DNA from: an uncultured Oscillospiraceae bacterium
Lineage (GTDB): Bacteria > Bacillota > Clostridia > Oscillospirales > Ruminococcaceae
DNA: 64,000 nucleotides
Assembly: GCA_964369445.1 (NCBI GenBank)
Contig: CAYJFU010000001.1
Span: forward strand, 3,409 to 67,408
Reading direction: 5' to 3'
The notes under the pieces were generated by a model, which saw only the letters and a list, made by a program, of their open reading frames with translations, ran no database searches and was not told the DNA's origin. Shown here piece after piece: positions 792-11,944 of this stretch (positions are counted from its first letter, which is position 1; each line of letters begins with the position of its first letter). The position numbers and the translations under genes are program-made.

Positions 792-2549
792 TTAATATCT
801 CTTGGTGCGCTCAACATATTTTGTGTGCAACAGCGCATGTGCCTTGTGGCTACCCGGTGCGCCAAGATATTCGCCGTAAAGGCTCTTGATGCTCTCATTG
901 TTATGGCTGACACGGTTTTTAGATGCCTTGTCCTCGCCGTAAAGTGCAGAAGCGCGCAGACCTTTGAGATCTTTAAAGTTGCGGACAACTGCCGGTTGTA
1001 CCGGCTGACCACCACCGTTTACACAGCCACCGGGGCAAGCCATAAACTCAATGAAGTCATATTCTGCCTCGCCGGCTTTGATGCGACGTAACACTTCGTG
1101 ACAGTTGGAAAGGCCGGAGGCTACACAAACACGAACCTTTACGCCTGCAACCTCGTATGTTGCTTCCTTGATGTTTTCTGTACCACGAACATCGTTAAAG
1201 TCAAGGCTTGCCGGCTCTTCGCCTGTAAGGGTTGCAACCGCTGTACGCAGTGCGGCTTCCATAACACCACCGGTTGCGCCAAAGATGTGTCCTGCGCCGG
1301 AGGCTTCGCCCAGAGCGGGGTCAAACTGCTCGTCCGGCAGGTTGACAAAGTCGATACCTGCGCGGTAGATAACGCGTGCAAGCTCACGTGTTGTAAGTGC
1401 TACGTCAACGTCCGGCAGACCTGAGGCCGCTTGGTTTTCACGTCCTACCTCAAACTTTTTAGCTGTGCAAGGCATGATGGACACTACAAAGATGTCCTCG
1501 GGCTTTTTGCCGATCTTTTCAGCATAGTATGTCTTTGCAACGGCACCGAACATCTGTTGCGGGCTCTTACAGGTGGACAGATTTTCGATAAAGTCGGGGT
1601 GGAAGGTCTCGCAGTATTTTACCCAACCCGGACTACAGCTTGTGATAAGCGGAAGTGTACCGCCGTGCTGTACGCGGTGTAAAAACTCGGTTGCCTCCTC
1701 CATGATGGTGAGGTCAGCGGCAAAGTCGGTGTCATAAACGCCGTCAAAGCCCAGGCGACGCAGTGCGGCAACCATCTTGCCCTCTACATTGGTGCCGATA
1801 GGCATGTGGAAAGCTTCGCCCAGTGTAGCACGTACCGACGGTGCTGTCTGCACGATAACATGCTTTGTGTCATCGGCAAGCGCCGCCCATACCTTATGGG
1901 AATCGTCTTTTTCAGCAATAGCGCCGGTCGGACAGACAACGATACACTGACCGCAGGATACGCAGGTACTGTCGTTTAAGTCTGCTTCAAAAGCACAAGC
2001 AACGTGAGTTTTAAATCCGCGCTCGTTAGCACCGATACAACCGACTGCCTGCCACTTGTTACATGCAGCGATACAGCGACGGCAAAGTATACATTTAGAG
2101 TCGTCACGTGTCATGTGGACGGCACTGTCGTCGGTGATGTACTCATTTTTAACACCGGCAAAACGGTCGGTGTTGGTTATGCCATACTCCTGACACAGGC
2201 GCTGAAGTTCACAGCTACCACTACGCACACAGCCAAGACAGTCCTGATTGTGTGTGGAAAGTGTCAGTTGCAGGTTAGTTTTGCGAGCGTTGTGCACGCG
2301 CGGACTTTGAGTGTTTATCTCCATGCCGGCGGCTACAGGGTGAACACAGGCAGTGACAAGACTGCGTGCGCCCTTGACCTCGACAACGCACACGCGACAT
2401 GCGCCGATGGCGTTGATTTCTTTGAGGTAGCACAGTGTGGGAATCTCTATTCCGAGGTCGTGGCAGACCTCCAAAATAGTCTTGCCCTCCTGCACCTCGT
2501 AATCAACACCGTTGATTTTTACATTAATGTTAGCCATTTTTTCCTCCAA
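792..2549 (-). CDS. hydA: [FeFe] hydrogenase catalytic subunit, multi-cluster bifurcating/NAD(P)-linked type (HydA/HndD-like)
   Basis: 585 aa with an N-terminal 2Fe-2S motif (CYLKEINAIGACRVC), a His-ligated cluster motif (HNQDCLGCVRSGSC) and two 4Fe-4S motifs (CILCRRCIAAC, CVSCGQCIVVCP). H-cluster motifs are TSCSPGW, MPCTAKKFE and EFMACPGGCVNGGGQP. It is the last gene of the hydC...hydB-hydA operon. Confidence 0.9.
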   Translation of the reverse strand: MEEKMANINVKINGVDYEVQEGKTILEVCHDLGIEIPTLCYLKEINAIGACRVCVVEVKGARSLVTACVHPVAAGMEINTQSPRVHNARKTNLQLTLSTHNQDCLGCVRSGSCELQRLCQEYGITNTDRFAGVKNEYITDDSAVHMTRDDSKCILCRRCIAACNKWQAVGCIGANERGFKTHVACAFEADLNDSTCVSCGQCIVVCPTGAIAEKDDSHKVWAALADDTKHVIVQTAPSVRATLGEAFHMPIGTNVEGKMVAALRRLGFDGVYDTDFAADLTIMEEATEFLHRVQHGGTLPLITSCSPGWVKYCETFHPDFIENLSTCKSPQQMFGAVAKTYYAEKIGKKPEDIFVVSIMPCTAKKFEVGRENQAASGLPDVDVALTTRELARVIYRAGIDFVNLPDEQFDPALGEASGAGHIFGATGGVMEAALRTAVATLTGEEPASLDFNDVRGTENIKEATYEVAGVKVRVCVASGLSNCHEVLRRIKAGEAEYDFIEFMACPGGCVNGGGQPVQPAVVRNFKDLKGLRASALYGEDKASKNRVSHNNESIKSLYGEYLGAPGSHKAHALLHTKYVERTKRY

Positions 2550-2554
2550 AAATC

Positions 2555-4342
2555 TTACTGCCTGACAATGGCATCAAATTTGCATTTTTCTATGCATGCG
2601 CCACATTTAATACAGGTATCGGTATCAATAACATGAGCCTGCTTAACTTCGCCACTGATAGCACTAACCGGACAAACACGCTTACAAGCTGTGCAACCCT
2701 TACACTTATCAGCAATAACAAAGAAATTGACAAGATCTTTACAAACGCCGGCAGGGCAACGTTTTTCGTTGATGTGTGCCTCATACTCGTGACGGAAGTA
2801 ACGCAGTGTCGAGAGTACCGGGTTTGGCGCTGTCTGACCCAGACCGCACAGAGAGTTGTCTTTAATGAAAGCCGCAAGCTCTTCGATATCATCAATATCC
2901 GACGGTTTGCCGTTGCCGGAAGTGATTTTTTCAAGCAGTTCAAGCAGACGCTTTGTACCAACACGGCACGGGGTACATTTACCACAGCTCTCGTCGACGG
3001 TGAAGTCAAGGAAGAACCTTGCGATGTCAACCATACAGGTCTCTTCGTCCATGACGATAAGACCGCCCGAACCCATCATGGAACCGATGGCGATAAGGTT
3101 GTCGTAGTCAATGGGGGTGTCGATAAGCGATGCGGGAATACAGCCACCGGACGGGCCACCCGTCTGAGCCGCTTTAAATTTCTTGCCGTTCGGGATACCG
3201 CCGCCGATGTCCTCGACGATCTCGCGCAGGGTTGTACCCATCGGGATTTCAACAAGGCCGGTATTATTTATCTTGCCGCCCAGAGCAAACACCTTTGTGC
3301 CCTTTGACTTTTCGGTACCCATCGAGGCGAACCACTCGGCACCGTTTAGGATAATCTGCGGAATGTTTGCGTATGTCTCAACGTTGTTGAGGATGGTGGG
3401 CTTGCCAAAAAGACCCTTGACCGCCGGGAACGGAGGACGGGGACGCGGCTCACCGCGGTTGCCCTCGATGGAGGTCATAAGAGCTGTCTCCTCACCGCAG
3501 ACAAATGCGCCCGCGCCGAGTTTTATCTCTAAATCAAAGTTAAAGCCTGTGCCGAAGATATTTTCGCCCATAACGCCGGACTCTTTTGCCTGGTCAAGAG
3601 CAATCTGTAGCCTTTTAACGGCGATGGGGTACTCAGCACGCACATAGACGTAACCCTTGTCAGCGCCGATAGCGTAGCCGGCAATTGCCATAGCTTCAAT
3701 AAGTACATGGGGGTCGCCCTCGAGCACACTTCTGTCCATAAATGCGCCGGGGTCACCCTCGTCAGCGTTACAGCAGACGTATTTTTGACTGCTTTCACTC
3801 GCCTTACATAGCTTCCACTTGATACCGGTCGGGAAACCGCCGCCGCCTCTGCCGCGCAGACCGCTGTCCAGAATTTCCTTTACAACGTCGTCCGGTGTCA
3901 TCTCGGTCAAAACCTTACCGAGTGCCGCGTAGCCGTCGTAAGCTACATACTCTTCAATCTTTTCGGGGTCGATAACACCACAGTTGCGAAGTGCAACACG
4001 CTTTTGCTTTTTGTAAAAGCCGGTGTCGTTGAGGGATTTGACGATGCCGTCTTCCACCGTCTCGGTATAGAGCAGGCGGGTGACGATACGTCCTTTGAGC
4101 AGATGCTCGGACACGATTTCAGGTATATCCTTGACGTCTACCATCGAGTAGAAAGCGCCTTCGGGATAGATAACAACAATCGGACCTAACGCACAAAGAC
4201 CGAAACAACCTGTTGTTACGACCTTGACTTCCTTTTCAAGACCTGCCGTGACAAGCTCTTTTTCAAAAGTCTCAATAATTTTTACACTGCCGGAGGAGGT
4301 ACAACCGGTACCGCCGCAGACAAGCACATGGGATCGATACAT
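2555..4342 (-). CDS. hydB: Hydrogenase NADH-binding flavoprotein subunit (NuoF/51-kDa-like, HydB/HndC)
   Basis: 595 aa with a thioredoxin-like 2Fe-2S N-terminus (VLVCGGTGC...CFGLCALGP), a GRGGGGFPTG FMN/NADH core and a C-terminal 2x[4Fe-4S] domain (CKGCTACKRVCP, CIKCGACIEKC). Confidence 0.9.
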   Translation of the reverse strand: MYRSHVLVCGGTGCTSSGSVKIIETFEKELVTAGLEKEVKVVTTGCFGLCALGPIVVIYPEGAFYSMVDVKDIPEIVSEHLLKGRIVTRLLYTETVEDGIVKSLNDTGFYKKQKRVALRNCGVIDPEKIEEYVAYDGYAALGKVLTEMTPDDVVKEILDSGLRGRGGGGFPTGIKWKLCKASESSQKYVCCNADEGDPGAFMDRSVLEGDPHVLIEAMAIAGYAIGADKGYVYVRAEYPIAVKRLQIALDQAKESGVMGENIFGTGFNFDLEIKLGAGAFVCGEETALMTSIEGNRGEPRPRPPFPAVKGLFGKPTILNNVETYANIPQIILNGAEWFASMGTEKSKGTKVFALGGKINNTGLVEIPMGTTLREIVEDIGGGIPNGKKFKAAQTGGPSGGCIPASLIDTPIDYDNLIAIGSMMGSGGLIVMDEETCMVDIARFFLDFTVDESCGKCTPCRVGTKRLLELLEKITSGNGKPSDIDDIEELAAFIKDNSLCGLGQTAPNPVLSTLRYFRHEYEAHINEKRCPAGVCKDLVNFFVIADKCKGCTACKRVCPVSAISGEVKQAHVIDTDTCIKCGACIEKCKFDAIVRQ

Positions 4343-4419: not shown

Positions 4420-4785
4420 TTATTTCGCGCCTATTGTGTATTCCGTAACTGCGTTGCCGTTGACAATGTGGTCGGTAACGATTTTAGAAACCTTTTCCGG
4501 TGACATTTTAACGTAGGTAACCTTTTCCTGACCCGGTACAAAAACTTCAACAACCGGCTCGTATTGGCAGATGCCTATGCAACCTGTCTGTGCAACCGTT
4601 ACATTTGTTAGTTTGCGCTTTGCAATTTCGTCCGAGAAGGATGTCAGCACGGGACGTGCTCCTGCCGCTATGCCGCATGTAGCCATACCAACAACGACGC
4701 GAATGTTGCCCTTTGCGTCGTCACGAACGCCGATGGTTTCTCTAGTCTTGTCGCGTAACGCTTTGAGTTCTTCCAAACTTTTCAT
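4420..4785 (-). CDS. Thioredoxin-like [2Fe-2S] ferredoxin (HndB-like small hydrogenase subunit)
   Basis: 121 aa with VVVGMATCGIAAGA...CIGICQYEPVV Cys motifs typical of NuoE-fold 2Fe-2S proteins. It is embedded in the hyd operon and overlaps the upstream gene. Confidence 0.75.
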   Translation of the reverse strand: MKSLEELKALRDKTRETIGVRDDAKGNIRVVVGMATCGIAAGARPVLTSFSDEIAKRKLTNVTVAQTGCIGICQYEPVVEVFVPGQEKVTYVKMSPEKVSKIVTDHIVNGNAVTEYTIGAK

Positions 4786-5318
4786 AATTTTATTTCCTCT
4801 GTATGCTCTTTTATATACTGCCGGACAAAAGCCGCAACGTCCGGCTCGGATAGCGGTACACCCTCTAAGATGTCTTTAAGCTGTACCGTGTCGGTGCAAA
4901 ACTCACCTTTTGGGGTAGCGTAGCGGTAGAAAAAATCCATATGCTCGTTACAGGTGATAAGCACCATAAATGTTTCGGTCATGTCGCCGACGGGCAAACA
5001 GTCGATGTGGCCCGTGTCAAAACTTGCTGTGACACAGGTGCCGACACCCGGCTCGGAGGTGATGTCGAAACTTCCGCCGGTCTGCTCTGCCGCCATTTTA
5101 AAAAACGGCACACCCAGCCCGACTCGTCTTGTCGTGCGCGATGTAAAAAACGGATCGGTGACATGCGCTAACTGCTCGGCGTCCATGCCGCAACCGTTAT
5201 CCCTCACAACAACGGTGAGACGGCTGTCTTTAAAGTCCAGCTCAATATCAACGCGTGTCGCCCCCGCCTTAACGGAGTTTTGCGCTATATCGAGTATGTT
5301 TAGCGACAGCTCTTGCAT
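4782..5318 (-). CDS. GHKL/HATPase_c-domain ATP-binding protein encoded inside the hydrogenase operon
   Basis: 178 aa. NILDIAQNSVKAGA...VRDNGCGMD...GLGVPF are the N, G1 and G2 boxes of histidine-kinase-like ATPases. The same position, between the nuoE-like and nuoF-like genes, is known from Thermoanaerobacter-type hyd operons. Confidence 0.7.
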   Translation of the reverse strand: MQELSLNILDIAQNSVKAGATRVDIELDFKDSRLTVVVRDNGCGMDAEQLAHVTDPFFTSRTTRRVGLGVPFFKMAAEQTGGSFDITSEPGVGTCVTASFDTGHIDCLPVGDMTETFMVLITCNEHMDFFYRYATPKGEFCTDTVQLKDILEGVPLSEPDVAAFVRQYIKEHTEEIKL

Positions 5319-5321
5319 AGT

Positions 5322-5819
5322 TTATATATTGTACTGTGCGAGTATGCCATCGACATCGTCTGTTGTCAGACGTCCGTGGACGTCCTCATTTACGGTGAGA
5401 ACCGGTGCAAGTCCACAAGCGCCGATACAGCGACATGCCTCAAGCGTGAACAGACCATCCTCGGTGGTCTCGCTGTTGCCGATGTTCAGTTTTTGGCTTA
5501 AACGGTCAAATATATCACCGGCGCCCTTAACGTAGCACGCGGTGCCAAGACATACAGAGATCGTGTACTTCCCCTTTGGATTTAGTGAGAACTGGGAGTA
5601 GAATGTTACAACGCCGTAAATTTGTTCCAGCGGCAACTCCAGTTCCTCCGAGACGACACGTTGAACCTCAATAGGGAGGTAGCCAAAGATTTCCTGAGCG
5701 ACCTGAAGTGCGGGCATAAGCGCACCTTGCTCGGATTTCATCTCATTCAGCTTTTTTCTCAGCGTGTCAATTTGCTCCGCAGTACCTTTAAACGGAGCAA
5801 CTTTAACATTTCCTGCCAT
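5322..5819 (-). CDS. hydC: Hydrogenase NuoE/24-kDa-like [2Fe-2S] subunit (HydC/HndA)
   Basis: 165 aa with CLGTACYVKG...CRCIGACGLAPV, the NuoE-type 2Fe-2S motif. It is the first gene of the operon. Confidence 0.85.
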   Translation of the reverse strand: MAGNVKVAPFKGTAEQIDTLRKKLNEMKSEQGALMPALQVAQEIFGYLPIEVQRVVSEELELPLEQIYGVVTFYSQFSLNPKGKYTISVCLGTACYVKGAGDIFDRLSQKLNIGNSETTEDGLFTLEACRCIGACGLAPVLTVNEDVHGRLTTDDVDGILAQYNI

Positions 5820-6025
5820 AGATAAATTCCTTTCTGAAGTATATAATTTTATAGCCTTAGTTAAAATTATATCATATAAAATCGTTAAAGGCTATAGCAA
5901 ATTTGTAAAAATTTTGAGTTTTTTTATTGCAAGGTGACGAACAGTAATGTATACTTAATTATATAGTTGAAATTTAGTGGCAAAACAGTCTCGGTGCAGA
6001 TAATACCGAGTTACCGCAAACTTAA

Positions 6026-6388
6026 ATGAGGTGTTTTATGACGATTGGTGATATAGTAAATATTTTAGGTGCTGAGCTTGTCTGCGGACAGGATCACATC
6101 GACACGGAGGTGCACACGGCCTGTGCAAGTGACATGATGAGCGATGTGCTCGCGTTTGTGAAAGATCAGGCGGTACTGCTGACCGGTCTTTTAAACACAC
6201 AGACGGTGCGTACAGCGGAGATGATGGATATTATTTGCATCGTGTTTGTGCGCGGCAAAAATCCCACTGAAGACATTATAGAGCTTGCAAACGAGCGTGG
6301 CATTGCGGTTGTTAAAACCGAAAAGCGCATGTTTGAGGCGGCAGGCCGACTTTACGCCGCCGGACTTGCCGGCGGAGACACGCACTGA
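6026..6388 (+). CDS. DRTGG-domain protein (alternative start at 6038)
   Basis: 120 aa. A small CBS-pair-associated-like DRTGG fold (VLLTGLLNTQTVRTAEMMDIICIVFVRGKNP...GIAVV). It is divergent from hydC and first in the sensor cluster. Confidence 0.6.
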   Translation: MRCFMTIGDIVNILGAELVCGQDHIDTEVHTACASDMMSDVLAFVKDQAVLLTGLLNTQTVRTAEMMDIICIVFVRGKNPTEDIIELANERGIAVVKTEKRMFEAAGRLYAAGLAGGDTH

Positions 6389-6405
6389 CACTTTAGGAGG
6401 TTAAC

Positions 6406-6837
6406 ATGAACAAGGACGACATACTTTTGACATTTACCGTGCCGGGTGACGATTTTACGCGCGCCGGCGAGGCCTCCAGCATAGTTAAGCGCAACTTAAA
6501 AAAATTAGGTCTGCCACCGGACACGATACGCCGTATTGCCATAGCTCTTTACGAGGGAGAAATTAATATGGCGATACATGCTCACGGCGGTGACATAGAG
6601 GTTGTTATCGGCAACGACTGCGTTGAGTTGCTTTTAAAGGACACAGGCCCCGGCATACCCGACATCGAAAAGGCGATGCAGGAGGGTTTTTCCACTGCTA
6701 CGGCACAGGTTCGCAATCTAGGGTTTGGTGCCGGCATGGGTCTGCCCAACATGAAACGCAACAGTGACAGCATAGATATACAGTCCGCCGTCGGGGAGGG
6801 CACAACAATAAAGATGATTGTAAACATACCGGAGTAA
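6406..6837 (+). CDS. RsbW/SpoIIAB-like anti-sigma-type Ser/Thr kinase (HATPase_c)
   Basis: 143 aa. ALYEGEINMAIHA...LKDTGPGIPD...GFGAGMGLPNM are GHKL ATPase boxes, and the RBS aggaggt lies upstream. Confidence 0.7.
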   Translation: MNKDDILLTFTVPGDDFTRAGEASSIVKRNLKKLGLPPDTIRRIAIALYEGEINMAIHAHGGDIEVVIGNDCVELLLKDTGPGIPDIEKAMQEGFSTATAQVRNLGFGAGMGLPNMKRNSDSIDIQSAVGEGTTIKMIVNIPE

Positions 6838-6841
6838 CTTC

Positions 6842-8164
6842 ATGTCAAGCAGTGACCAAAAATTTCATTCCGTGCGCCTTGACCGCGATAAATGTTGCGG
6901 ATGCACCAATTGTGTAAAGCGATGTCCAACCGAGGCGATAAGGGTGCGTGACGGTAAGGCGCGGATTATAGAGGACAGGTGTATCGACTGCGGCGAGTGC
7001 ATACGCGTGTGCAAACAGCACGCAAAACTGCCGGTTGTCGACCAGTTGTCGCAACTAGAGGCTTACAAGTATAAAATCGCCCTGCCGGCACCGGCACTTT
7101 TCGGGCAGTTTAATAACCTCGAAAGTGTTTCGACGGTGCTGTACGGACTACTGAAAATGGGGTTTGATGACATTTTCGAGGTGGCAAGGGCCGCAGAGTG
7201 CGTCAGTACATACACACGCTCGGAGCAGTTTTTCGACACCCTCACAAAGCCTATAATCAGCTCGGCATGTCCGGCGGTCGTGCGTTTAATTCGCGTGCGT
7301 TACCCCGAACTACTTGAAAACGTGCTTGCGCTCAACTCACCGATGGAGGTGGCGGCGCGCGCGGCGAGAGCCGAGGCGATGCAACAGCATGGACTTCGCT
7401 CCGAGGACATCGGCATATGCTTTATTTCCCCATGTGCGGCAAAGATGACAGCGACAAAGTCACCGCTTGGCACCGATTACTCCGCCGTTGACCTTGTTGT
7501 CGGCATAAGGGACGTCTATCCACTACTCATTCAAGCGATGAGCAAGCAGGATGATGCGGAACTGTACTCACAAGCAGGGCGCATAGGTCTGAGCTGGGGT
7601 AGCAGCGGCGGCGAGGCGGCGGCACTGTTGCGCAACAATTACCTTGCGGCGGACGGCATCGAAAACGTTATAAACGTGCTGGACAATCTGGAGGACGAAA
7701 AGCTTGCCGGACTTGATTTTGTCGAGCTCAATGCCTGTTGCGGCGGCTGTACCGGCGGCGTGCTAACCGTTGCAAACCCTTACATGAGCAACACCAATTT
7801 GAAAAGTTTAACCCAATACATGCCGGTGATGGGTCACGCTGTGTTGCAATGTCCCGACGAGGTTATAAGGTACGACAAGGAGCTTACACACCTGCCGGTG
7901 CTACAGCTCAACTCCGACAGGCGCACGGCACACGCAATGATGCAACAACTGCGCGATATAGAGGCACACCTGTATGGCATGGATTGCGGTGCATGCGGCG
8001 CACCGTCTTGCAAGGCGCTCGCTGAGGACATAGTGCGCGGCTTTGCCACCGAGGAATTTTGCATGTACAAGATGAAAGACAGGGTGCGCTCGGCGGCACA
8101 AAAGCTGTCGGAACTGTCCGAGATGTTCCCTCAGTTGAAGGAAACCGGCGAGTGGGAGGGGTAA
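6842..8164 (+). CDS. [FeFe]-hydrogenase-like protein with modified H-cluster motifs (putative sensory hydrogenase, HydS-like)
   Basis: 440 aa with an N-terminal 2x[4Fe-4S] domain (CCGCTNCVKRCP, CIDCGECIRVC). The Fe_hyd_lg_C-like core carries SSACP (vs TSCCP), SPCAAKMTA (vs MPCxxKxxE) and ELNACCGGCTGG (vs ExMACxxGCxxGGGQP). The C-terminus has a CGACGAPSC...C motif. Confidence 0.75.
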   Translation: MSSSDQKFHSVRLDRDKCCGCTNCVKRCPTEAIRVRDGKARIIEDRCIDCGECIRVCKQHAKLPVVDQLSQLEAYKYKIALPAPALFGQFNNLESVSTVLYGLLKMGFDDIFEVARAAECVSTYTRSEQFFDTLTKPIISSACPAVVRLIRVRYPELLENVLALNSPMEVAARAARAEAMQQHGLRSEDIGICFISPCAAKMTATKSPLGTDYSAVDLVVGIRDVYPLLIQAMSKQDDAELYSQAGRIGLSWGSSGGEAAALLRNNYLAADGIENVINVLDNLEDEKLAGLDFVELNACCGGCTGGVLTVANPYMSNTNLKSLTQYMPVMGHAVLQCPDEVIRYDKELTHLPVLQLNSDRRTAHAMMQQLRDIEAHLYGMDCGACGAPSCKALAEDIVRGFATEEFCMYKMKDRVRSAAQKLSELSEMFPQLKETGEWEG

Positions 8165-8174
8165 TCACACTCGG

Positions 8175-8202
8175 TTGACAAGTTATTATGTTTTGTGATA
8201 TT
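8175..8202 (+). promoter_or_regulatory. Candidate SigA-type promoter of the hicB/hicA cassette
   Basis: TTGACA (8175-8180), a 16-nt spacer ending in TGt, then GATATT (8197-8202), about 33 nt upstream of the 8235 start. Confidence 0.45.
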
Positions 8203-8234
8203 GTAGAGTTAGGATTTTCACCTGTGAGGGTTGC

Positions 8235-8453
8235 ATGGACTTAACAATCAATATGCTATGGGACAACGAGGCTTGTGTATGGGTAGCCACAAGCGACGAC
8301 ATCCCCGGACTTGTGCTTGAGATGGGATCTTTTGACGGTTTGGTTGAAAGGTTGCGATATGCAATACCCGAATTATTGGAGTTAAACAGTAGCAAATGCG
8401 GTTTTTGTGACCTAAATATTGTCACTAACCGCCACGTTCGGGTAGAAATGTAA
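8235..8453 (+). CDS. DUF1902 / HicB-like antitoxin-family protein
   Basis: 72 aa. WDNEACVWVATSDDIPGLVLEMGSFDGLVERLRYAIPELLELN resembles DUF1902 (HicB N-terminal fold). Its stop overlaps the start of the hicA remnant (TAATG). Confidence 0.55.
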   Translation: MDLTINMLWDNEACVWVATSDDIPGLVLEMGSFDGLVERLRYAIPELLELNSSKCGFCDLNIVTNRHVRVEM

Positions 8454-8790
8454 TGGCAGAATATGAAAAAAAGGTGCGCAAACTGTTATTGCAGAATAAT
8501 TGCTCTTTTGTAAGGCGCGGAATTGGTACAGTCCTATTTCTCGACGACATATATAGTCATTCAACTTTAAAAACGACATGAGATTGCCGAGCAGAAATTT
8601 CGCCTATCAAGGCGGAGGATTGAGTAATACTAAAGTATTGCGATTGACGACAACGCAGATAGACGGGATTTCTGCCGGGAAGATGTGGTGTTTTTCAAGT
8701 TGAAGGACTATAACTGTTGATACTCGCATAAAATCGCGTCACACGGCAAATGCAATATTAAAGCAATGTGGCATAAACTTTAAATTTTAA
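8453..8790 (+). pseudogene. hicA: HicA-family toxin gene remnant, interrupted by a MITE (8554-8710) and with an internal frame disruption
   Basis: The 5' part reads MAEYEKKVRKLLLQNNCSFVRRG. NWYSPISRRHI follows in another frame up to the element. Directly after the element and one TA, the frame continues TVDTRIKSRHTANAILKQCGINFKF*, a HicA-like C-terminus. Confidence 0.6.
8554..8710 (+). mobile_element. MITE-like element, family A, short form (copy A2), inserted in hicA
   Basis: Termini are TAGTCATTCAACTTTAAAAAC...GTTTTTCAAGTTGAAGGACTA, and the arms form an imperfect inverted repeat of roughly 65 bp. TA lies on both sides (8552-8553 and 8711-8712). Removing the element plus one TA restores the hicA frame. 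Confidence 0.8.
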
Positions 8791-8805
8791 CAAGGAGCAC
8801 CACCC

Positions 8806-9141
8806 ATGACAGTACAGCAACTTATCGACCACTGTAAATTTGATATAATCTGTGACGGTGACGGACTGGACAGCGCTATAACCCCCGACATCTACTGCTG
8901 TGACCTTTTGAGCTACGCTATGGTGCGCGCGCCACAGGACGGTGTGTGGGTAACCGTTATGGGTAACCGCAACGTCGTGGCGGTGGCATCGCTCACCGAT
9001 ACAGCATGCGTCATCATCGCCGACGGCAGTGTGCCGGACGAGGACGCGCTGAGCGCCGCGCGAGAACAGGGCGTCGTACTGCTCAAAAGCGGACTGCCGG
9101 TGTTTGAGACGGCAAAGCTTGTCGAGCAAGCACTGACATGA
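8806..9141 (+). CDS. DRTGG-domain protein (second copy)
   Basis: 111 aa. VTVMGNRNVVAVASLTDTACVIIADGSVPDEDALSAAREQGVVLL is DRTGG-like. RBS aaggag. It overlaps the start of the downstream PHP gene. Confidence 0.6.
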   Translation: MTVQQLIDHCKFDIICDGDGLDSAITPDIYCCDLLSYAMVRAPQDGVWVTVMGNRNVVAVASLTDTACVIIADGSVPDEDALSAAREQGVVLLKSGLPVFETAKLVEQALT

Positions 9142-9847
9142 GTTGTTTTTATGACCTACATATCCACACGGCACTGTCACCGTGCGGCGACGACGACATG
9201 ACCCCCAACAACATCGTCAACATGGCGCTGTTGTGTGAGTTGGATGTCATCGCCGTCACCGACCACAACTCCACCGCCAACTGCGAGGCGGTTGTAAACG
9301 CAGCGCAAGGTACCGGTCTTACCGTGCTGTGTGGCATGGAGCTGTGCACCTCCGAGGAGATACATGTCGTCTGCCTTTTGCCGGACGTCGACGCGGCGAG
9401 ATATTTCGGCAACTATGTAAAAAGCCGCAGTCTGCCCGTAAAAAACCGCAGTGACATATACGGGCGGCAACTGCTGATGGACGCGCAGGACAACATCGTC
9501 GGTGAGGAGCAGACGCTACTGCTGACCGCCGCCGACATCTCCGTCACAAACCTGCACCACATATTATACCACTACGGTGGTGTGGCTGTGCCGGCGCACA
9601 TCGAGCGCGAGAGTTACGGTATGTTGTCGGTGCTGGGCACAGTGCCACAGGACTGTTTTTCGGCGCGGTGGAGGTGAAACGTTACGAGAATTTTATTGCG
9701 CGCCCTACCTCAACCGATGTAAAACAGCGGTACAAAATCATCACGAGCAGTGATGCCCACAACCTTGCCTCTATTAACGAGGCGCAAAACACCCTGCCTG
9801 TGGGCGCTGATTTTAAAGATATACACGCATATTTAAGTGAGATTTAA
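9138..9847 (+). pseudogene. PHP-domain (polymerase/histidinol phosphatase-like) metal-dependent phosphoesterase with an apparent 1-nt frameshift near 9653-9660
   Basis: The N-terminus has FYDLHIHTALSPCGDDDMTP...VTDHNS. The ORF stops at 9677, but the -1 frame continues GAVEVKRYENFIARPTSTDVKQRYKIITSSDAHNLASINEAQN... to 9847. The total length of 710 nt is 3n+2, and the break falls at a T5 run. Confidence 0.7.
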
Positions 9848-10607
9848 ATTGAACAACGAAAGCATAATTACAAGCAGAAAAAACGAGCGCGTCGTGCGCA
9901 CCGCCGACATACTGCGCGGCAAAATAAAGGACGAGGGCGGACTTTTCGCCGTCGAGGGGGTGCGCCAGTGCAAAGACGCGCTTGCCGCCGGCGTACTGCG
10001 CGAGCTGTTTATCACAGAAAAATGCCTCGGCAAAAACCTGTGCTTCGACCTTGGTGACATACCGGTAAACATCGTTATGGAGCACGTTTATGAGCGCATA
10101 ACGCTGTTAAAATCGCCGGAAGGGGTGTGCGGTCTGTGCACTTTACCGATTGCGCCGACGTTAAAAAGCTCCGGGCGGTACGCGGTACTGTGCGACATAC
10201 AAAACCCCGAAAACGTTGGTGCTATACTGCGCAGTGCGGCAGCGTTTGGCTTTGATGCCGCGGTTATGGTGGGCAACTGTGCCGACGTGACAGGCGCAAA
10301 GACGGTGCGCGCGGCGGCAGGCGCGGTTTTTGTACTGCCCACGATGCGCATGAGTAGCGATGAATTTTTCACCATTACAAAAACGGAAAATCTGCGCACG
10401 ATAGCGATGACTTCGGCCGGTGACATAACGCTGGACGATTGCGCGGCGCAGGACGGCACGGCGGTGCTTATCGGCAACGAGGGCGCAGGGCTTACCTCCG
10501 ACGTAATATCGCAGTGCGACTCTACAGTGCGCATTGAACTGTGCGACTTTGAATCGCTAAACGCGGCGGTGGCGGCCGGCATTGTACTACACAAATTTAG
10601 GAGATAA
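9837..10607 (+). CDS. TrmH/SpoU-family RNA 2'-O-methyltransferase (RlmB-like); the true start is probably a few codons downstream
   Basis: 256 aa with NPENVGAILRSAAAFG...LIGNEGAGL...SLNAAVAAGIVL, the SpoU methylase motifs. Confidence 0.75.
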   Translation: MRFKLNNESIITSRKNERVVRTADILRGKIKDEGGLFAVEGVRQCKDALAAGVLRELFITEKCLGKNLCFDLGDIPVNIVMEHVYERITLLKSPEGVCGLCTLPIAPTLKSSGRYAVLCDIQNPENVGAILRSAAAFGFDAAVMVGNCADVTGAKTVRAAAGAVFVLPTMRMSSDEFFTITKTENLRTIAMTSAGDITLDDCAAQDGTAVLIGNEGAGLTSDVISQCDSTVRIELCDFESLNAAVAAGIVLHKFRR

Positions 10608-10616
10608 AAAGACATA

Positions 10617-11273
10617 ATGGCAGATGTAAACTTATTACCAATTGTAATGTCCGTTGTAATTTCATACCTTGTCGGCAGCATCATGTTTGCCGTTTTGATT
10701 TCAAAGGGGATCTACAAACAGGACATTCGAACCCTCGGCAGTAAAAACGCCGGCATGAGTAACATGATGCGTAACTTCGGCAAAAAGGCAGGTATCGGCA
10801 CATTTGTCGGCGACCTGCTCAAAGGCACTGTCGCGGTTGTCGTGTCATCGCAGATTGGCAGTGCTTTTGACGGTAATGAGTTGACGGTGGTGCTCTGCAC
10901 ATTTTTGGGCGCGCTCGGCGCAATGTTCGGACATATGTTCCCACTTTACTTTGGTTTTAAGGGTGGCAAGGGTGTCGCGACCGGTGTCGGCTGTGTGTTT
11001 GGTGTCAACCCCGTCGTCGCGCCGATACTGCTTATCATATTTTTTATAGCATTTAAGAGCACCGGCTACTTTTCCGTCGGCAGTATAGCCGGCACGGTGG
11101 CTTTCCCGATACTACATCCGCTTTATTCCATGCTTGTCGGGGTACAGCTTCTGCCTGTCGAACTTTTTTTGTCGGTTGTGCTTTCGGGTATTGTGGTGTT
11201 TATGCACCGCTCGAACCTCGTGCGCCTTATCAAACACACTGAGCCGAAATACGGCAGTAGCAAGAACAAATGA
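10617..11273 (+). CDS. plsY: Glycerol-3-phosphate acyltransferase PlsY
   Basis: 218 aa polytopic membrane protein with GSKNAGMSN and FKGGKGVATG motifs. Confidence 0.9.
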   Translation: MADVNLLPIVMSVVISYLVGSIMFAVLISKGIYKQDIRTLGSKNAGMSNMMRNFGKKAGIGTFVGDLLKGTVAVVVSSQIGSAFDGNELTVVLCTFLGALGAMFGHMFPLYFGFKGGKGVATGVGCVFGVNPVVAPILLIIFFIAFKSTGYFSVGSIAGTVAFPILHPLYSMLVGVQLLPVELFLSVVLSGIVVFMHRSNLVRLIKHTEPKYGSSKNK

Positions 11274-11944
11274 GCAGAATATACTTTACCGATGAAAGCG
11301 GCGCACTGTCGCAGGAGGATATCCGTCACATGACGCGTGTGTTGCGCGCCCGTGTGGGGGATGTTTTTCGTCTGTCCGACGGAGCGGGTAACGACTACAG
11401 CTGTGTAGTGACAAGCCTGTCGCCGTTTTTATACGAACAAAAGGCGCAACTGCCGCCGACCCTGCAACGTCGCCGGCTGACGGTGCTACTTGCCGCCTCA
11501 AAGCAGGACAAACTTGCAACGACAATACGTCGCCTGACGGAACTCGGCGCGGCGGACATAGTGATATTCAAATCCGCCAACGGCGATGCAACACTAAAGA
11601 ACTTTGACTTTAAAGCAGAGCGCTACAGGAAAATTGTTATAGAAGCGGCAAAACAGTGCGGACGCAGTACTCTGTGCAACATACACTTTGCAAAGGATTT
11701 TGCCGCGGCACTGGGCAGTGCGCACGGCAGTGTGATATTCTGCCACGAAAAGGCAACTGTGCGGCTTTCGCAGATAACAGTGACCGATGACGTGACGGTG
11801 TGCATCGGTCCCGAGGGCGGTTTTGACGACAAAGAGCTTGCGCTCGCCGAGCAACAGGGTGCCACAGCGGTGCTCATCTCCCAAAACGTGCTGAGATGCG
11901 AAACCGCCGCCATAGCGGCCGCGGCAATGGTTATGGAGATGTGA
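11270..11944 (+). CDS. rsmE: 16S rRNA (uracil1498-N3)-methyltransferase RsmE
   Basis: 224 aa with a PUA-like N-terminus (HMTRVLRARVGD) and a C-terminal IGPEGGF...LRCETAAI SPOUT knot. Confidence 0.85.
   Translation: MSRIYFTDESGALSQEDIRHMTRVLRARVGDVFRLSDGAGNDYSCVVTSLSPFLYEQKAQLPPTLQRRRLTVLLAASKQDKLATTIRRLTELGAADIVIFKSANGDATLKNFDFKAERYRKIVIEAAKQCGRSTLCNIHFAKDFAAALGSAHGSVIFCHEKATVRLSQITVTDDVTVCIGPEGGFDDKELALAEQQGATAVLISQNVLRCETAAIAAAAMVMEM

Follow-up and report, generated by a model that had tools for sequence, protein, structure and literature searches.

A putative sensory Group D [FeFe] hydrogenase and its conserved DRTGG, GHKL and PHP neighbours beside the bifurcating hydrogenase operon of an uncultured Oscillospiraceae bacterium

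Among the [FeFe] hydrogenases, the putative sensory Group D, or M2e, is defined by two N-terminal clusters, the loss of the proton-relay cysteine (Ala137 in TamHydS, the type enzyme, from Thermoanaerobacter mathranii), a serine or threonine at the position of M353 and a poorly conserved M497 position, and furthermore by a proton path of S249, E252, D265 and E289, a C-terminal Cx2Cx4Cx16C motif and the lack of a PAS domain (PMC8163306, PMC10407848, PMC13104023). The relay cysteine in question corresponds to C299 of the hydrogenase CpI, and it is in Group D that M353 is replaced by serine or threonine (PMC8163306). Slow, CO-tolerant H2 turnover and an H2-induced structural change are known for TamHydS only (PMC8163306). 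A kinase-like ATPase next to TamHydS was described by Land et al. 2020, while Carere et al. 2012 (PMC3561251), following Calusinska 2010, stated that trimeric bifurcating hydrogenases are preceded by M2e 'sensory' hydrogenases, often with a kinase in between. The neighbourhood is thus not new, the link of HydS to a kinase and to the bifurcating hydrogenase HydABC having been published since 2010-2012. A paper of 2026 still calls for the identification of HydS interaction partners (PMC13104023), which agrees with the statement of an earlier first-pass annotation that the signalling logic has not been worked out. The present analysis concerns such a locus in an uncultured Oscillospiraceae bacterium (GenBank assembly GCA_964369445.1, contig CAYJFU010000001.1, positions 3,409 to 67,408 of the forward strand; this whole stretch of 64,000 nucleotides is termed the window), where a gene for a 440-aa HydS protein lies within a cassette of small genes next to hydABC.

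Group C (M2f) proteins, i.e. HydS and HfsB of Thermotoga maritima, Ruminococcus albus and the hfsABCD genes of Thermoanaerobacterium, have likewise lost the relay cysteine, carry a C-terminal cluster and are linked to Ser/Thr phospho-signalling as well as to hydrogenase genes; moreover, deletion of hfsB alters adhE expression and ethanol yield, which lends genetic support to a regulatory role of Group C (PMC5707799, PMC11837493, PMC10055695). Group C proteins carry a fused PAS domain and pair with a PP2C phosphatase. The cassette has neither; a second small DRTGG protein is encoded at the place of the PAS domain and a PHP-domain phosphoesterase instead of PP2C. The [NiFe] system HoxBC-HoxJ-HoxA of Cupriavidus necator resembles the arrangement proposed here in that a low-activity hydrogenase acts as H2 sensor and hydrogenase genes are controlled via a kinase. 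However, its hydrogenase is of an unrelated class, and it signals through a histidine kinase and a response regulator of the canonical kind. The window cassette lacks both: Pfam finds neither HisKA nor Response_reg in it, as the first-pass annotation had maintained for two-component parts.

On balance, the locus is probably an H2- or redox-responsive signalling module that is functionally tied to HydABC, while much less confidence attaches to any single mechanistic step than to this reading of the module as a whole. Most likely, HydS, as a slow hydrogenase of the sensor type, would report H2 or redox state to a first DRTGG protein (DRTGG1), a SpoIIAB-like kinase, a second DRTGG protein (DRTGG2), the PHP protein and a GHKL ATP-binding protein, and these five small proteins together with HydS would tune the neighbouring electron-bifurcating HydABC.

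Judged from its sequence, the 440-aa protein is a putative hydrogenase of the sensory Group D/M2e type and not a catalytic one. It displays the motifs SSACP (A142), SPCAAK (S196) and ELNACCGGCTGG, all of which had been reported by the first-pass annotation along with the C-terminal CGACGAPSC...C, which is equally present. HMMER alignment to the Desulfovibrio HydAB structures places A142 on the first cysteine of TSCCP. The family was represented by 50%-identity clusters, comprising 109 full-length representatives and an alignment of 110 rows; the relay position is occupied by Ala, Ser, Phe or Thr and never by Cys in the 109 representatives, and position 196, equivalent to M353, is Thr in 50 rows and Ser in 44 (together 94 of 110). 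Cysteines for two N-terminal [4Fe-4S] clusters (C18, C21, C24, C28, C47, C50, C53 and C57; Pfam Fer4 family matches) are kept in 98-110 of the 110 rows, and the H-cluster ligands C143, C198, C299 and C303 of the H-domain (Pfam Fe_hyd_lg_C, 1.9e-31) in 108-109 of them. The C-terminal CGACGAPSC-x16-C conforms to Cx2Cx4Cx16C (C382, C385, C390 and C407; Pfam FeS, PF04060, 3.9e-9), and the protein ends 33 residues past its last cysteine without a Pfam match to PAS.

TamHydS shares with the window protein the 2x[4Fe-4S] domain, the relay alanine, a serine at M353, the Ser/Glu/Asp/Glu path, the Cx2Cx4Cx16C motif and the lack of PAS (PMC8163306, PMC10407848, PMC13104023), and its gene likewise adjoins a kinase-like ATPase and the bifurcating HydABC. 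This likeness rests on a constant numbering offset in conjunction with family conservation: A142, S196, S255, E258, D271 and E295 fit the TamHydS positions at an offset of +5/+6 by number and not by direct alignment, the four proton-path residues S255/E258/D271/E295 standing, by the same numbering-based match, at +6 from S249/E252/D265/E289 (PMC10407848). None of these six residues varies in 16 relatives, and family-wide a Glu is found at 258 in 84 and at 295 in 101 of the 110 rows. At M497, TamHydS has Leu and the window HydS Asn, the position being variable across the family and, according to the paper, poorly conserved. In a quick maximum-likelihood tree of the sequences gathered in this analysis, computed without named references of groups A-G, the window HydS falls within a clade of 46 rows (Shimodaira-Hasegawa-like approximate likelihood ratio support 99), made up of proteins of some 440 aa that are linked to the cassette, with catalytic HydA on the other side. 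The first-pass annotation had named a place among catalytic hydrogenases, with intact relay residues after alignment, as the outcome that would undo its finding; this outcome did not occur, as the clade is separate from HydA and the relay cysteine is absent after alignment. Its designation as a sensory paralog of the HydS type is hence borne out by A142, the tree and the family as far as the sensory type is concerned, whereas the protein belongs to Group D without PAS and not to the PAS-bearing HydS of Group C.

The genes of the locus, in window coordinates, are as follows.

792-2549, minus strand: hydA, 585 aa, the catalytic subunit, a group A [FeFe] hydrogenase, of a HydABC of bifurcating type (Pfam Fe_hyd_lg_C 2.7e-101, Fe_hyd_SSU, Fer2_4, NADH-G_4Fe-4S_3)
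2555-4342, minus strand: hydB, NuoF-like FMN/NADH subunit, 595 aa (Pfam Complex1_51K, NADH_4Fe-4S, SLBB, Fer4)
4420-4785, minus strand: small thioredoxin-like [2Fe-2S] ferredoxin, 'HydD'-like, 121 aa (Pfam 2Fe-2S_thioredx)
4782-5318, minus strand: stand-alone GHKL ATP-binding protein within the hyd operon, 178 aa (Pfam HATPase_c 1.7e-18, HATPase_c_3)
5322-5819, minus strand: hydC, NuoE-like [2Fe-2S] subunit, 165 aa (Pfam 2Fe-2S_thioredx 1.2e-50)
5820-6037, no strand: intergenic region between the divergent strings, with promoter-like hexamers facing either way (TTGCAA-17-TATACT at 5927-5955)
6038-6388, plus strand: DRTGG1, small protein with a single DRTGG domain, 116 aa if started at the ATG of 6038, with an open reading frame (ORF) that opens at 6026 (Pfam DRTGG 2.5e-9)
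6406-6837, plus strand: SpoIIAB/RsbW-like GHKL protein of the kinase type, 143 aa (Pfam HATPase_c_2 6.7e-11)
6842-8164, plus strand: HydS, Group D (M2e) putative sensory [FeFe] hydrogenase, 440 aa (Pfam domains, motifs, alignment, tree)
8165-8805, plus strand: 641-bp insert with a DUF1902/HicB-like ORF, a broken hicA remnant and a miniature inverted-repeat transposable element (MITE) (Pfam, repeat copies, comparison with a related locus, L004)
8806-9141, plus strand: DRTGG2, second small DRTGG protein, 111 aa (Pfam DRTGG 6.3e-7)
9138-9847, plus strand: PHP-domain metal-dependent phosphoesterase gene, frameshifted (Pfam PHP 2.6e-9)

These genes form two divergent strings, hydC-GHKL-fdx-hydB-hydA on the minus strand and DRTGG1-kinase-hydS-DRTGG2-PHP on the plus strand, the latter being referred to as the cassette. 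Within them, the start of the ferredoxin gene (4785) overlaps the GHKL stop (4782), and the DRTGG2 stop overlaps the PHP start (ATGA). Pfam and the ORFs confirm the gene set of the first-pass annotation, comprising two DRTGG proteins, a kinase, the hydrogenase-like protein, PHP and a GHKL protein inside the hyd operon, each where it had been placed; the frameshift in PHP and the 641-bp insert had been missed.

The neighbourhood is conserved far beyond chance. A survey of co-occurrence, which the first-pass annotation had suggested, covered 82 related loci, drawn from 80 species genomes and two contigs, of which 76 had enough flank to be judged, and DRTGG1, kinase, HydS, DRTGG2 and PHP follow each other in that order in 75 of the 76. 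Distant loci, 20 in number, with HydS 35-46% identical and from 15 families of the phylum, encode the five functions without exception, mostly in one 10-gene string, and hydABC is adjacent in 18 of them. Where the related loci could be judged in this respect, hydC-GHKL-fdx-hydB-hydA adjoins the cassette in 25 of 45, with 10 divergent, as in the window, and 15 co-directional. Compared with the TamHydS locus, the divergence from hydC, the insert and the broken PHP gene are features of the window. In the M2e loci of Clostridium thermocellum (Cthe_0335), Caldicellulosiruptor (Athe_1292/Csac_1857) and Thermoanaerobacter (Teth39_1463), a sensory-type hydrogenase likewise stands upstream of a trimeric bifurcating hydrogenase with a kinase between the two, and the gene-number spacing fits the 10-gene string; the source names only 'a histidine/serine kinase' (PMC3561251), and DRTGG, PHP and the second GHKL protein are treated in no searchable paper.

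Inclusion of the hyd-operon GHKL protein in the set, as put forward by the first-pass annotation, is backed by 401 genomes sampled evenly across the phylum, among which HydS (cut-off E<=1e-40) occurs in 152 and a GHKL protein of the hyd-operon type (by profile, E<=1e-25) in 163. Both are encoded in 149 genomes, 3 have HydS alone, 14 have GHKL alone and the other 235 lack the two; these counts span about 100 genera, and related genomes among them are not independent. PHP+GHKL fusions, described below, point the same way. In addition, the small ferredoxin is kept beside GHKL in 44 related loci, and in L089 it stays with GHKL and the cassette although hydC and hydA are missing.

Gene fusions connect the members of the set in several combinations. 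DRTGG1 and the kinase form one ORF in L100 and L101, while PHP and GHKL are joined in one ORF of about 430 aa in L090, L091 and L095, where the hyd operon is then without a GHKL gene of its own; open frames of 425-456 aa for PHP+GHKL were found in nine genomes of two families. Among the 150 best family representatives, seven carry DRTGG2 at the C-terminus of HydS, two combine DRTGG1 with HydS (P0143, P0194) and one combines the kinase with HydS (P0156). A single ORF was confirmed in genome DNA for HydS + DRTGG2 in L113, L114, L115 and L121, with no separate DRTGG2 gene in L113, L114 and L121, and for kinase + HydS in L117. Gene order and fusions, both read from sequence, thereby name the small neighbour proteins as likely partners of HydS.

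HydS itself is not present in every version. Seven loci were taken from the 14 genomes with GHKL only: L107, L108, L109 and L112 encode a HydS-less cassette composed of DRTGG1, a CBS pair fused to the SpoIIAB-like kinase, DRTGG2, PHP and GHKL, and L106, L110 and L111 represent decayed or reduced versions. L089 holds both a CBS-kinase and HydS. Because the CBS pair with the kinase stands in the HydS-less cassettes, HydS appears as the usual but exchangeable input to a core of DRTGG1, kinase, DRTGG2, PHP and GHKL, which suggests that it is one of the inputs that a more general DRTGG/GHKL/PHP switch may use. Three of these four HydS-less cassettes lie apart from any hydrogenase operon, and that of L108 adjoins a DUF134 gene and an Rnf operon. 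No conserved output gene was found beside the free-standing HydS-less cassettes, whose neighbours differ (cell-wall amidases at one locus, DUF134 and Rnf at another).

The HydS architecture was furthermore encountered in fusion with output domains. On contig 43 of the same genome (L002:1165-3024, plus strand), a third hydrogenase-like gene encodes a 619-aa protein in which a GGDEF diguanylate cyclase domain is fused to 2x[4Fe-4S], an H-domain reading SQPCP for TSCCP and a weak FeS domain; its domain content makes it a candidate for a one-component sensor of H2 or redox state with cyclic di-GMP output. In two genomes of one family, L100:12553-14778 (minus strand) and L101:5625-7874 (plus strand), the gene directly upstream of the cassette encodes a protein of about 745 aa that joins the full HydS architecture (2x4Fe4S, H-domain, FeS domain) to an AAA+ domain for sigma54 interaction and a helix-turn-helix (HTH) of the Fis type, and that constitutes a candidate H2-sensing enhancer-binding protein. 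Since the same architecture is thus fused to GGDEF and to sigma54-AAA+/HTH outputs, a sensor role for this architecture gains support.

Turning to the small proteins, the kinase has its nearest match in SpoIIAB (NCBIfam spIIAB 5.5e-14, a score that falls short of the curated cut-off; PDB SpoIIAB 3.5e-8), possesses the N, G1 and G2 boxes and displays conserved YEGEINMxIHA, DxGPGI and GFGAGMGLPN. The partner-switching modules SpoIIAB-SpoIIAA-SpoIIE and RsbW-RsbV-RsbU share with the cassette a small HATPase_c_2 kinase, small adjoining partner genes and a phosphoesterase gene in the operon, but employ a STAS antagonist, PP2C and a sigma factor, in contrast to the DRTGG fold and the second GHKL protein found here. 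No PP2C gene was met in the operon, whose phosphoesterase is PHP. For DRTGG1, an AlphaFold2 model with a mean predicted local distance difference test (pLDDT) score of 91.5 best resembles AF1212 (2IOJ, template modelling score 0.82), the DRTGG domain of the CBS pyrophosphatase (3L2B) and the N-domain of HPrK/P. In the CBS-DRTGG insert of family II pyrophosphatases (3L2B/3L31), DRTGG is paired with CBS in an enzyme-regulating unit, which is an analogy of fold only. Both DRTGG families share the motifs D-[LM]-[LM]-S-x-V and [LV]-T-[GV], the Ser/Thr residues of which are candidate modification sites and nothing more.

The two GHKL proteins (143 and 178 aa) have no DHp/HisKA domain by Pfam and are bare catalytic domains. 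Fold searches with the AlphaFold2 model of the 178-aa protein (pLDDT 91.3) matched its first ~105 residues to the CA domains of histidine kinases and to BCKDK/PDK, whereas the full length matched MutL, PMS2 and TopoVI-B, weakly, so that, judged by the model, the protein may act either as a kinase or as an ATPase of the MutL kind. Mitochondrial PDK/BCKDK and their phosphatases, in which a Ser kinase of GHKL fold switches a redox enzyme complex, offer a further analogy of fold that implies no shared ancestry. To treat PHP as a protein phosphatase is an assumption, and the partner-switching circuit of kinase and phosphatase suggested by the first-pass annotation is likewise hypothetical.

In the window, the cassette is not in its usual state. 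The N-terminal part of PHP is encoded at 9138-9677 (179 aa) and the C-terminal part with the SDAH motif in another frame up to 9847, the shift being located at a T5 run at 9656-9660, where the intact 237-aa protein of a 67%-identical relative reads ...DCFFG.... Relatives have an intact PHP of 236-237 aa with all metal motifs (HxH ... DHN ... E ... H ... PAH ... SDAH), a set from which the frameshift in the window separates SDAH, and a tblastn search recovered the gene as two segments in different frames, with no further copy elsewhere in the genome. The gap between hydS and DRTGG2 amounts to 641 bp (8165-8805), compared with 31 bp in L004, and harbours the DUF1902/HicB-like ORF (8235-8453; Pfam DUF1902 1.7e-21), the broken hicA remnant, a MITE of about 165 bp at about 8547-8714 with at least 30 genome copies of 76-92% identity, and a near-consensus promoter-like TTGACA-16-TG-GATATT at 8175-8202. 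The other members of the set, namely HydS, the kinase, the two DRTGG proteins and GHKL, are encoded by intact genes and have retained the family-invariant residues. With its PHP gene, present only once, frameshifted and with the hicB/MITE insert lying between hydS and DRTGG2-PHP, the module probably suffers impairment in this genome.

Two technical accounts of the frameshift were set aside. Assembly-wide indel noise is unlikely because the ORF statistics of the assembly are normal (coverage 85%, median ORF length 294 aa), a single error being possible; programmed -1 frameshifting at UGU UUU UCG is at best remotely conceivable, as the A-site codon cannot re-pair.

Whether impairment extends to a decaying remnant devoid of function is a question on which we lean towards the negative, considering this outcome rather unlikely but worth taking seriously. 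Such an outcome would fit the single-copy, frameshifted PHP gene, the splitting of the operon by the hicB/MITE insert and the decay seen elsewhere, namely the HydS and PHP fragments of L106, the lack of PHP in L048 and stops inside HydS in G154, G169 and G081. It is opposed by the five intact genes with their family-invariant residues, by the promoter-like site in the insert together with the absence of any plus-strand terminator found before DRTGG2, and by the nature of the frameshift, a single T in a homopolymer, as might arise by error, by recent mutation or by a slip that can revert.

With regard to the mechanism, a signalling module tied to HydABC might operate in four steps. In the first, H2 would reduce the H-cluster and HydS would change its conformation, by analogy with TamHydS, for which this is shown in the literature, and not for the window protein. 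The signal would then leave via the C-terminal Fe-S domain to DRTGG2, which stands at the place of the PAS domain of Group C. In the third step, HydS, DRTGG1 and the kinase may form a complex in which the ATP-dependent activity of the kinase is switched, the target possibly being the conserved Ser/Thr of the DRTGG proteins. Finally, PHP and the second GHKL protein could form an opposing or downstream unit, the post-translational action of which would be directed at HydABC or at a regulator that is not linked to the locus. A fully specified six-protein switch, in which DRTGG2 is the receiver of HydS and equivalent to PAS, DRTGG1 is the antagonist or substrate of the kinase, PHP and GHKL are a PDK/PDP-like pair controlling HydABC post-translationally, and the sensor slot is filled by HydS for H2 or by the CBS pair for adenylate state, is a tentative proposal that we regard as fairly unlikely to hold in all its parts.

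Several observations weigh against a signalling module of this kind. H2 does not reduce the C-terminal cluster of TamHydS, according to the 2026 study (PMC13104023), and redox signalling through this cluster is therefore unlikely. None of the top 50 listed structure matches of the DRTGG1 model has a STAS fold, DRTGG is not known to contain a phospho-acceptor site, there is no sigma factor among the annotated neighbours of the cassette, a dedicated sigma-factor search across loci not being part of the analysis, and no DNA-binding gene is linked to the cassette. In about 44% of the judgeable Oscillospirales loci (20 of 45), as well as in the case of several HydS-less cassettes, the cassette lies away from hydABC, so that its output need not be HydABC. 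The searchable literature contains no paper that links DRTGG to this hydrogenase cassette or names the accessory genes Cthe_0334, 0336 or 0337 of C. thermocellum, and the PHP frameshift of the window could be an assembly error. Lastly, the modelled GHKL protein resembles MutL-type ATPases as much as kinases, and the nearest solved structures of PHP, 7UG9 (RNase AM), 3E0F and 2YB1 (pAp phosphatase), are nucleotide phosphoesterases.

The last two points lead to a different reading, in which the module handles a nucleotide signal: PHP, as a TrpH/YciV-like enzyme, would degrade pAp, pGpG, Ap4A or a cyclic nucleotide and would not act on protein phosphorylation, DRTGG and CBS would bind adenine nucleotides, the GHKL pair would be ATP-driven switches and HydS would couple H2 to energy charge. 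Apart from RNase AM and the pAp phosphatase as nearest solved relatives of PHP, weak NCBIfam matches to RNase RNM and nucleoside bisphosphate phosphatase are in keeping with it, as are the resemblance of the DRTGG1 model to the regulatory region of the CBS pyrophosphatase (3L2B), the CBS pairs that replace or join HydS on the kinase, and the GHKL protein, whose motifs I and II are MutL-like and whose full length is matched by MutL, PMS2 and TopoVI-B. However, no messenger-forming cyclase or synthetase is encoded in the cassette, SpoIIAB as the nearest match of the kinase is a true protein kinase, and the structure matches of PHP, with E-values of 6e-6 to 5e-4 and confined to the N-terminal 80-126 residues, are too weak to fix its substrate. 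We regard the nucleotide reading as distinctly unlikely.

The tight 10-gene string with hydABC in 18 of the 20 distant loci, the translational coupling of the GHKL gene between hydC and the small ferredoxin, and the low bidirectional catalysis that TamHydS keeps (PMC8163306) would also suit another role, namely that of accessory or assembly subunits of HydABC, in which the six proteins serve maturation, repair or activity gating by a chaperone and HydS provides an entry module for electrons or H2. This role is nevertheless very improbable, given that the cassette is apart from hydABC in those 20 of 45 judgeable loci, with L004 and L005 as additional cases, that the HydS-less CBS-kinase versions stand alone, and that the HydS architecture is fused to GGDEF and sigma54 activators elsewhere. 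The purified and cryo-EM HydABC complexes (7Q4V, 8A6T, 7P5H) are not known to contain any of the cassette proteins, which likewise counts against it.

As for the surroundings, genes for a SpoU-type rRNA methylase, PlsY and RsmE follow downstream of PHP (window 9837-11944), and because L004, the 67%-identical relative, has them in the same order, the flank to the right of PHP is syntenic and intact. No Rfam match to a known regulatory RNA was obtained in 5700-9000, nor was a shared palindromic operator or a Rex-like box found upstream of DRTGG1 in 100 loci. The best solved match of HydA is HydA1 of Acetobacterium woodii (7Q4V, 5e-199). Motif 1 of the window HydA reads TSCSPGW rather than TSCCPxW (window 1620-1650, minus strand); a defect was rejected as explanation, as the active A. 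woodii HydA1 and 35 of 36 related HydA have the same motif, and the sequences thus mark TSCSPGW as a normal variant of the bifurcating HydA clade.

Taken together, the window locus is an ordinary copy, notable only for its mobile-element insert and its broken PHP gene. Group D HydS occurs in about 38% of the sampled genomes of the phylum (152 of 401), usually beside the bifurcating hydrogenase, the enzyme that determines how much H2 is released by fermenters of the gut, the rumen and biofuel production. TamHydS has been characterised spectroscopically, while its partners and signalling route were listed as open by the field as of 2026. Gene order and fusions now provide a testable list of partners, with DRTGG2, DRTGG1 and the SpoIIAB-like kinase to be followed by PHP with GHKL.

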